A stretch of DNA of 6,045 bases from a virus (lineage: Duplodnaviria > Heunggongvirae > Uroviricota > Caudoviricetes), in IMG/VR virus record IMGVR_UViG_2671180755_000006, one strand, 5' to 3'. Both the position numbers and the translations under genes were made by a program. Below are positions 5,711 through 6,045 of the stretch, in pieces (within the stretch, counting starts at the first letter, position 1; each line of letters opens with the position of its first letter). The notes beneath the pieces were generated by a model. That model was not told the origin of the DNA. It saw only the letters and a list, made by a program, of their open reading frames with translations, and searched no databases.

Positions 5711-5737
5711 AAACCCGCCCACAAGCGGGTTTTTTTG
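5711..5737 (+). terminator. strong intrinsic terminator (tR'-like)
   Basis: AAAACCCGC-CCACAA-GCGGGTTTTTTTG: GC stem followed by a run of seven T, upstream A-tract complementary to the T-tract. Confidence 0.85.
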
Positions 5738-5856
5738 TGCCACTTATCTCGGATAGACATGGTGAATGCGCTGGTGGAGGAAGCAAGGGTAATTTTTAAC
5801 CAGGTGATTCTTGAATGCTTGCAACATTGATTTCGTAACGTTATTATCCTGCGCCC

Positions 5857-5932
5857 GGCCCTTTAGCTCAGTGGTGAGAGCGAGCGACTCATAATCGCCA
5901 GGCCGCTGGTTCAAATCCAGCAAGGGCCACCA
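5857..5932 (+). tRNA. ileZ: tRNA with CAU anticodon (Met or lysidine-type Ile2), CCA encoded
   Basis: Hand-folded cloverleaf: acceptor GGCCCTT/AAGGGCC, D-stem GCTC/GAGC, anticodon loop CTCATAA, T-arm GCTGG-TTCAAAT-CCAGC, discriminator A. Symbol is by analogy to the ileZ-argN-argO set of Stx phages (from memory). Confidence 0.85.
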
Positions 5933-5939
5933 TCACATA

Positions 5940-6016
5940 CCGCCATTAGCTCATCGGGATAGAACGCCAGCCTTCGAAGCTGGTTTCGCGGGGTTCGAGT
6001 CTCCGATGGCGGTCCA
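5940..6016 (+). tRNA. argN: tRNA-Arg with UCG anticodon, CCA encoded
   Basis: Hand-folded cloverleaf: acceptor CCGCCAT/ATGGCGG, anticodon stem CCAGC/GCTGG with loop CTTCGAA, T-arm CGGGG-TTCGAGT-CTCCG (one G-U pair). One D-stem mismatch. Starts 7 nt after the previous tRNA. Confidence 0.85.
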
Positions 6017-6029
6017 TTATCGGTATTCT

Positions 6030-6045
6030 GCGTTTTTAGCTCAGC
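6030..6045 (+). tRNA. argO: 5' fragment of a third tRNA, truncated by the window end
   Basis: GCGTTTT-TA-GCTCAGC fits acceptor strand, positions 8-9 and start of the D-arm, 13 nt after the previous tRNA. Anticodon not visible; the symbol is a guess from the known trio. Confidence 0.45.

Follow-up and report, generated by a model that had tools for sequence, protein, structure and literature searches.

The ileZ-argN-argO tRNA gene cassette in a copy of the lambdoid prophage Sp14 of Escherichia coli O157:H7

The window, a stretch of 6,045 nt of viral DNA that was analysed as a whole, ends in closely spaced tandem tRNA genes with the anticodons CAU, UCG and UCU, in this order. With a probability of roughly 85%, they represent the ileZ-argN-argO cassette of a lambdoid prophage, here in the copy carried by the serU-integrated, non-Stx prophage Sp14, with a role in the supply of decoder tRNAs. 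The cassette is located in the late operon, behind the gene for the antiterminator Q and the candidate signals PR' and tR', and ahead of the holin and lysozyme genes, which were read downstream in three loci (L002, L003 and L004). Reference genomes already list the trio under its gene names (ileZ7, argN5 and argO7 in the RefSeq annotation of strain Sakai), its kind is annotated in the record of phage 933W, and it is a known and ordinary element. Beyond correct annotation the finding has little significance, and the useful point is a negative one, namely that no toxin should be inferred from these tRNA genes.

Assignment of the window to prophage Sp14

When 5426 complete E. coli genomes were searched, the whole window fell within a lambdoid prophage of E. 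coli O157:H7. The matching prophage is integrated at serU and is annotated in the Sakai genome as 'prophage Sp14, lambda-like phage' (NC_002695.2). With the N-masked runs left out of the comparison, the window differs in one base from strain Z887 and in three bases, all within Q, from Sakai Sp14, and the tRNA region is identical to the Sakai locus ileZ7-argN5-argO7. Based on these alignments, the window is Sp14, a lambdoid prophage that O157:H7 carries at serU, and not an Stx phage.

There is no substantive difference from Sakai Sp14, except that the two N stretches of the window are shorter than the real sequence for which they stand (Table 1). For this reason the coordinates of the window are compressed. 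The N runs are masking artefacts and not biology, and the same holds for ORFs predicted across them, for example 3154-3480 and 4781-4960. A match with '98% coverage in 3 pieces' was likewise rejected as a biological signal, its cause being the two masked runs. The Rfam match to sok belongs to the prophage's type I toxin-antitoxin locus, of the hok/sok type (hokD), which is followed by a hairpin with a T-run at about 3347-3375.

A 100%-identical match in strain EDL933 (CP120944, 2.42 Mb) was rejected as the counterpart of the window, as only the last 1175 bases match and the early region differs. These bases (window 4871-6045, from Q to the tRNAs) are located in a second, different lambdoid prophage of EDL933 (L002 11972-13146), whose upstream genes, where alignable, reach just 88-94% identity and whose early region is different, containing for example relBE. 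The occurrence of 1175 nt at 100% identity beside diverged upstream genes suggests that lambdoid prophages residing in the same host have recently recombined or undergone gene conversion.

Table 1. Features annotated in the window, with positions counted from its first nucleotide.
Feature	Position	Strand	Evidence and remarks
sok antitoxin	3042-3216	+	Rfam model, 114.9 bits, E 2e-26
N run	3238-3346		Stands for 197 real bases, hokD coding region
N run	4837-4870		Stands for 221 real bases, most of rusA
Late-gene antiterminator Q, 229 aa	4957-5646	+	Pfam PF06323 (Phage_antiter_Q), E 6.8e-92
Candidate late promoter PR', TTGCAA-17-TATATT	5630-5658	+	Consensus scan only, 9/12 matches; putative function
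Intrinsic terminator, candidate tR', AAAACCCGC-CCACAA-GCGGGTTTT and U-run	5710-5740	+	RNA fold
Predicted tRNA promoter pT, TTGCAA-17-TATTAT	5819-5847	+	Consensus scan; ends 9 nt before the first tRNA
ileZ, tRNA-Ile2 type, anticodon CAU, encoded CCA	5857-5932	+	ARAGORN; Rfam RF00005, 72.5 bits, E 5.9e-15
argN, tRNA-Arg, anticodon UCG, encoded CCA	5940-6016	+	ARAGORN; Rfam RF00005, 44.4 bits, E 3.4e-07
argO, first 16 nt, tRNA-Arg, anticodon UCU	6030-6045	+	GCGTTTTTAGCTCAGC; gene interrupted by the window end

The tRNA genes and their transcription signals

The original prediction, made from the sequence alone, had read two complete tRNAs (CAU and Arg-UCG) and the start of a third at spacings of 7 and 13 nt, and all of this was recovered by the tRNA detection and by comparison with related genomes. 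The two spacers are TCACATA (5933-5939) and TTATCGGTATTCT (6017-6029). The fragment at the window end matches the complete 77-nt tRNA-Arg(UCU) gene of L002, L003 and L004 at all of its first 16 positions (16/16); the genomes supplying this complete argO are identical in sequence to the window over the shared part. Complete argO scores 63.3 bits (L004), and all three genes thereby lie above the gathering score of RF00005, which is 29 bits.

The CAU gene is labeled tRNA-Ile by PGAP. ARAGORN labels it tRNA-Met because it reads the anticodon only, and this label was rejected in favor of tRNA-Ile2 after alignment with ileX, metT and metU of strain K-12. The pairs C4:G69 and C5:G68, which are the TilS determinants separating tRNA-Ile2 from tRNA-Met, are the same in ileZ and ileX, as are the four inner anticodon-stem pairs, the anticodon loop and the A73 discriminator, whereas the elongator tRNA-Met (metT/metU) differs in its anticodon stem and has the pairs U4:A69 and A5:U68. 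In total, 67/76 positions of ileZ are identical to ileX. The differences include an A27-C43 mismatch where ileX has G27-U43 and a compensated change from C6:G67 to U6:A67; unlike ileX, ileZ is phage-borne, with its own predicted promoter, and lies inside a late operon. By this alignment the CAU tRNA is a tRNA-Ile2, that is, a lysidine-dependent decoder of AUA that is ileX-like and not Met-like. With regard to the two arginine tRNAs, the UCG anticodon of argN is, to our knowledge, missing from the tRNA set of K-12, and the UCU anticodon of argO is the same as that of the rare host tRNA argU.

Upstream of the tRNAs, Q is annotated as such in Sakai Sp14 and strain Z887. The candidate PR' overlaps the Q stop codon, as does the annotated pR' of 933W, and the alignment revealed no homology between these two promoters. 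The G+C-rich hairpin of the candidate tR' (5710-5733) with its U-run has a folding energy of -16.4 kcal/mol (z = -3.6, with 0/200 shuffles equally stable), and its position 64 nt past the Q stop codon fits a late terminator. As A-runs are located upstream and T-runs downstream of the hairpin, a terminator on the minus strand was called by the scan too, and the element may be bidirectional. The placing of the tRNAs after a late terminator in the original prediction could thus be confirmed in that the terminator is real as a sequence element and located upstream, but it is not immediately adjacent: about 116 nt separate it from the first tRNA.

This gap contains the sigma-70-like promoter listed as pT in Table 1, which aligns with the 933W feature annotated as 'pT; putative tRNA promoter' (TTGCAG-17-TATTAT). 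In a comparison of seven diverse prophages, pT and ileZ are almost invariant. The -10 hexamer of pT is fully invariant, and the -35 hexamer is invariant at 4/6 bases (TTGC).

Comparison with phage 933W and the cargo slot

For the comparison with the Stx2 phage 933W, the GenBank annotation was used, in which the trio features are located at 21120-21371. The order given in this record (NC_000924) is Q, pR', qut, two terminators, pT, ileZ, argN, argO, a terminator, stxA2, stxB2, the SASA esterase gene, S and R, in agreement with the layout given in the original prediction, a trio between Q/PR' and stxAB. The two cassettes agree in their three anticodons and in the order of these, with identities of 75/76 for ileZ, 71/77 for argN and 73/77 for argO, and in both the trio comes after Q, a late promoter and one or more terminators and is followed further on by the esterase and lysis genes. 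The pT promoters have the same 17-nt spacing and -10 hexamer and differ in one base of the -35 hexamer, and the spacers between the tRNAs are 7 and 13 nt in the window and 9 and 13 nt in 933W. The homology starts at the -35 hexamer of pT (5819), spans the trio and extends for about 55 nt behind argO; it then breaks off and returns at an STnc100 element (Rfam) upstream of the esterase gene. As judged from this alignment, the trio is a true homologue of ileZ-argN-argO of 933W. In contrast, 933W has an unrelated Q gene (the one in the window belongs to PF06323) and an unrelated PR'/tR' region, and one terminator precedes the trio in the window as compared with two in 933W.

The three tRNA genes differ from their 933W counterparts to unequal degrees. 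For ileZ, a single base in the variable loop is different, being C47 in the Sp14-like copy, no stem is changed, and both copies score 72.5 bits. In argN, six bases are different and a C11-A24 mismatch is found in the D-stem (44.4 vs 54.8 bits for 933W). In argO, four bases are different and the acceptor stem contains a U6-C67 mismatch in place of the G6:C67 pair of 933W (63.3 vs 68.1 bits); U6 is seen in the window, and its partner C67 was read in the full gene beyond it. Among seven diverse prophages, with the intact copies aligned, both mismatches occur only in Sp14-like sequence. At position 37 of argO, the Sp14-like copy has the canonical A37 and 933W has G37. Of the three slots, that of argN is the most labile, and it is decayed or altered in other lineages. 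In PPompW phages (L001 6920-6995), it contains a gene with the anticodon UUU and C33 instead of the usual U33, which is designated tRNA-Lys by ARAGORN and by the record and does not reach the Rfam gathering score for tRNAs; the slot of strain MNCRE44 and that of isolate FELIX_MS724 are scrambled.

The sequence beyond the window end was read in three close relatives, namely Sakai Sp14, Z887 and the second EDL933 prophage. In each of them, the first gene past the trio encodes a 142-aa TerB-family protein (PF05099, E 5.4e-13; 'TciA/TerB-like' in Sakai), the second, overlapping gene a 55-aa DUF3927 protein (E 1.7e-16) and the third a 616-aa SASA-family carbohydrate esterase of the NanS-p type, followed by the holin, the lysozyme and the remaining lysis genes. 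In none of these three is stx found past the trio and, judging from near-identical relatives, no stxA-stxB pair lies between the trio and the lysis genes. The combination of Q, trio, TerB and DUF3927 is present at at least 99% identity in 324 records, compared with 332 records for Q and trio alone, which makes it almost certain that the continuation of the window itself is the same as that of its relatives. The remaining 61 nt of argO would then be followed by a spacer of about 170 nt, ORFs of 429 nt (TerB family) and 168 nt (DUF3927), an STnc100-like element and the esterase gene of 1.85 kb. Toxin or other cargo had been expected just past the window end: cargo ORFs do precede the lysis genes in the close relatives, and the trio does not lead straight into lysis, but the cargo is of the TerB-family/DUF3927 kind and includes no stx. 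For the two cargo proteins, no significant PADLOC match was obtained (best E 0.005).

As the homology stops past argO and resumes at STnc100 and the esterase gene, the cassette on one side and STnc100/esterase on the other bracket a replaceable slot. It contains stx2AB in 933W and the TerB-family and DUF3927 genes in the Sp14-like prophage; in MNCRE44 and FELIX_MS724 it contains DUF3927 and iraM, in PPompW phages an IS element, and in O104:H4 and ST131 prophages it is empty before the esterase gene. Judged by these comparisons, the cassette is also a conserved module boundary with a variable cargo slot immediately behind it, whose right-hand border the STnc100 element marks, and it can serve as a landmark for finding prophage cargo genes. 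The prophage of strain CUVET21-1780 (L021 2501-2810), which has the same Q type, contains the tRNAs Ile-CAU, Lys-UUU, Thr-UGU and Gly-UCC, with the holin gene directly behind them and neither cargo nor esterase. The STnc100-family sRNA element just past the slot scores 100.8 bits in the Sp14-like sequence (L004 16152-16324) and 207.7 bits in 933W, where STnc100 is accompanied by an anti-sRNA, AsxR, on the other strand (L005 3778-3983 and 3985-4037); AsxR gave no scoring Rfam match in the Sp14-like locus.

A further difference concerns the terminator between argO and stx2A of 933W (GGCTCGC-TTTT-GCGGGCC plus T6), which is intact there and disrupted in Sp14-like sequence. The same site in L004 (15395-15425, about 15-45 nt past argO) contains two substitutions affecting both arms, and this hairpin is no longer predicted by RNAfold.

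The prevalence of the cassette was determined in 5426 complete E. coli genomes, a genome being counted when at least 80% of the query was covered. The 250-nt trio query was found in 2578/5426 genomes (7548 matching places overall, up to 13 per genome), the trio with stx2AB in 594/5426 and the trio with TerB and DUF3927 in 671/5426. The cassette is thus a widespread module of lambdoid prophages in E. coli, and about half of the complete genomes carry it. As only 594 genomes carry it with stx2AB and other slot contents are found elsewhere, it is no toxin marker and its presence is no sign of Shiga toxin.

Codon demand, proposed function and alternative readings

Codon counts per 1000 were compared between the early and the post-tRNA genes of the Sp14-like prophage and a K-12 core region of 47 genes. 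The frequencies (early genes, post-tRNA genes and K-12 core, respectively) are 9.4, 7.0 and 2.4 for ATA, 6.1, 14.1 and 0.9 for AGA, and 6.1, 6.5 and 0.8 for AGG. These three codons are commoner in the prophage, with odds ratios of 3-16 and Fisher p values of 3e-3 to 4e-15. CGA (5.2, 5.3 and 2.5) and CGG (12.7, 5.9 and 4.0) are less enriched, by about 1.5-3 fold. In stx2A of 933W, ATA has a frequency of 47 per 1000 codons. The TerB-like cargo gene is almost devoid of these codons (one AGA in 142 codons), which suggests that the tRNAs serve the whole phage and not the adjacent cargo.

Given the established knowledge of tRNA-Ile2 with TilS and of Q antitermination, the tRNAs likely act as follows. 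In the lysogen, a basal output of tRNAs would come from pT, and after induction their bulk would be produced within the Q-antiterminated late transcript, from which host tRNA-processing enzymes would release them. The released tRNAs would then raise the decoder supply for AUA, CGA/CGG and AGA/AGG, codons that are rare in the E. coli core and frequent in the prophage's own and other acquired genes. Decoding of AUA would depend on the host TilS, which forms lysidine at C34.

The occurrence of tRNA genes just downstream of Q is recurrent in lambdoid phages and has been linked to rare codons (PMC3636060). In SfI, Sf6, ST64T, PS3 and p21, tRNA genes are located at the same map position, and the same decoding role has been proposed for them; the tRNA species are different from the trio, being Asn and Thr in SfI (PMC3636060). 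A literature search on these three genes, also in connection with Shiga toxin, and on the tRNA genes of 933W in relation to rare codons returned nothing, and in two STEC genomics papers tRNA genes are mentioned only in figure legends or methods.

An origin of the window from an Stx-converting phage, with stxA/stxB just past its end, would explain why the trio genes are 92-99% identical to those of 933W, where stx2A begins 90 nt past argO, and would agree with the joining of trio and stx2AB in the 594 genomes counted above. This reading has virtually no probability left, as the whole window corresponds to Sp14 at serU with its TerB-family, DUF3927 and esterase genes, and Stx2 phages match it only at 5784-6045 with about 90% identity, their Q and PR'/tR' being unrelated; the 324 vs 332 records point the same way. 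It is unlikely, although less remote, that argN and argO of Sp14 are redundant copies in decay that retain little function, if any, and that only ileZ is under selection. The Sp14-specific mismatches, the Rfam scores 10.4 (argN) and 4.8 (argO) bits under those of 933W, and the altered or scrambled argN slots of the PPompW phages and two other lineages would all fit such a decay. Among the matches listed, the O157 genomes contain 5-12 matching places each, and any single copy may therefore be redundant. On the other hand, both genes score above the Rfam gathering threshold and are recognized by ARAGORN as well as PGAP, a single mispair in a tRNA stem is frequently tolerated, two different O157 prophages have retained exactly this sequence, and it is the argO copy of Sp14, and not that of 933W, that has the canonical base at position 37.

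Phage-borne tRNAs have also been proposed as an escape from tRNA-targeting defenses, and colicin D is an anticodon nuclease that cleaves tRNA-Arg. With two of the three genes coding for arginine tRNAs, the trio could on this general knowledge serve mainly in counter-defense, as replacements or decoys against anticodon nucleases such as colicin D, with codon supply being secondary. This is very improbable, since the anticodons exactly match the codons over-used in the prophage, the cargo proteins lack a significant PADLOC match, and the cassette is highly conserved, whereas an arms race would give diversified anticodon loops. Also improbable, if slightly less so, is a further proposal in two variants. 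The mismatch-bearing arginine tRNAs could be nuclease-resistant replacements or decoys, or the loss of the terminator could let a constitutive pT express the TerB-like and DUF3927 genes in lysogens. Transcripts from pT might indeed run into the TerB-like gene because the hairpin downstream of argO is disrupted, and if they do, the trio would be the promoter-and-leader unit of a lysogenic-conversion module. Decoder supply from a known phage cassette is the preferred reading.

When one genome per species was scanned for a 46-mer of ileZ, exact matches came from Escherichia and Shigella. The 46-mer is also present on two contigs labeled uncultured Collinsella sp. and MAG: Proteobacteria bacterium (L011 and L017), which may be Escherichia prophage DNA that was misassigned in binning.
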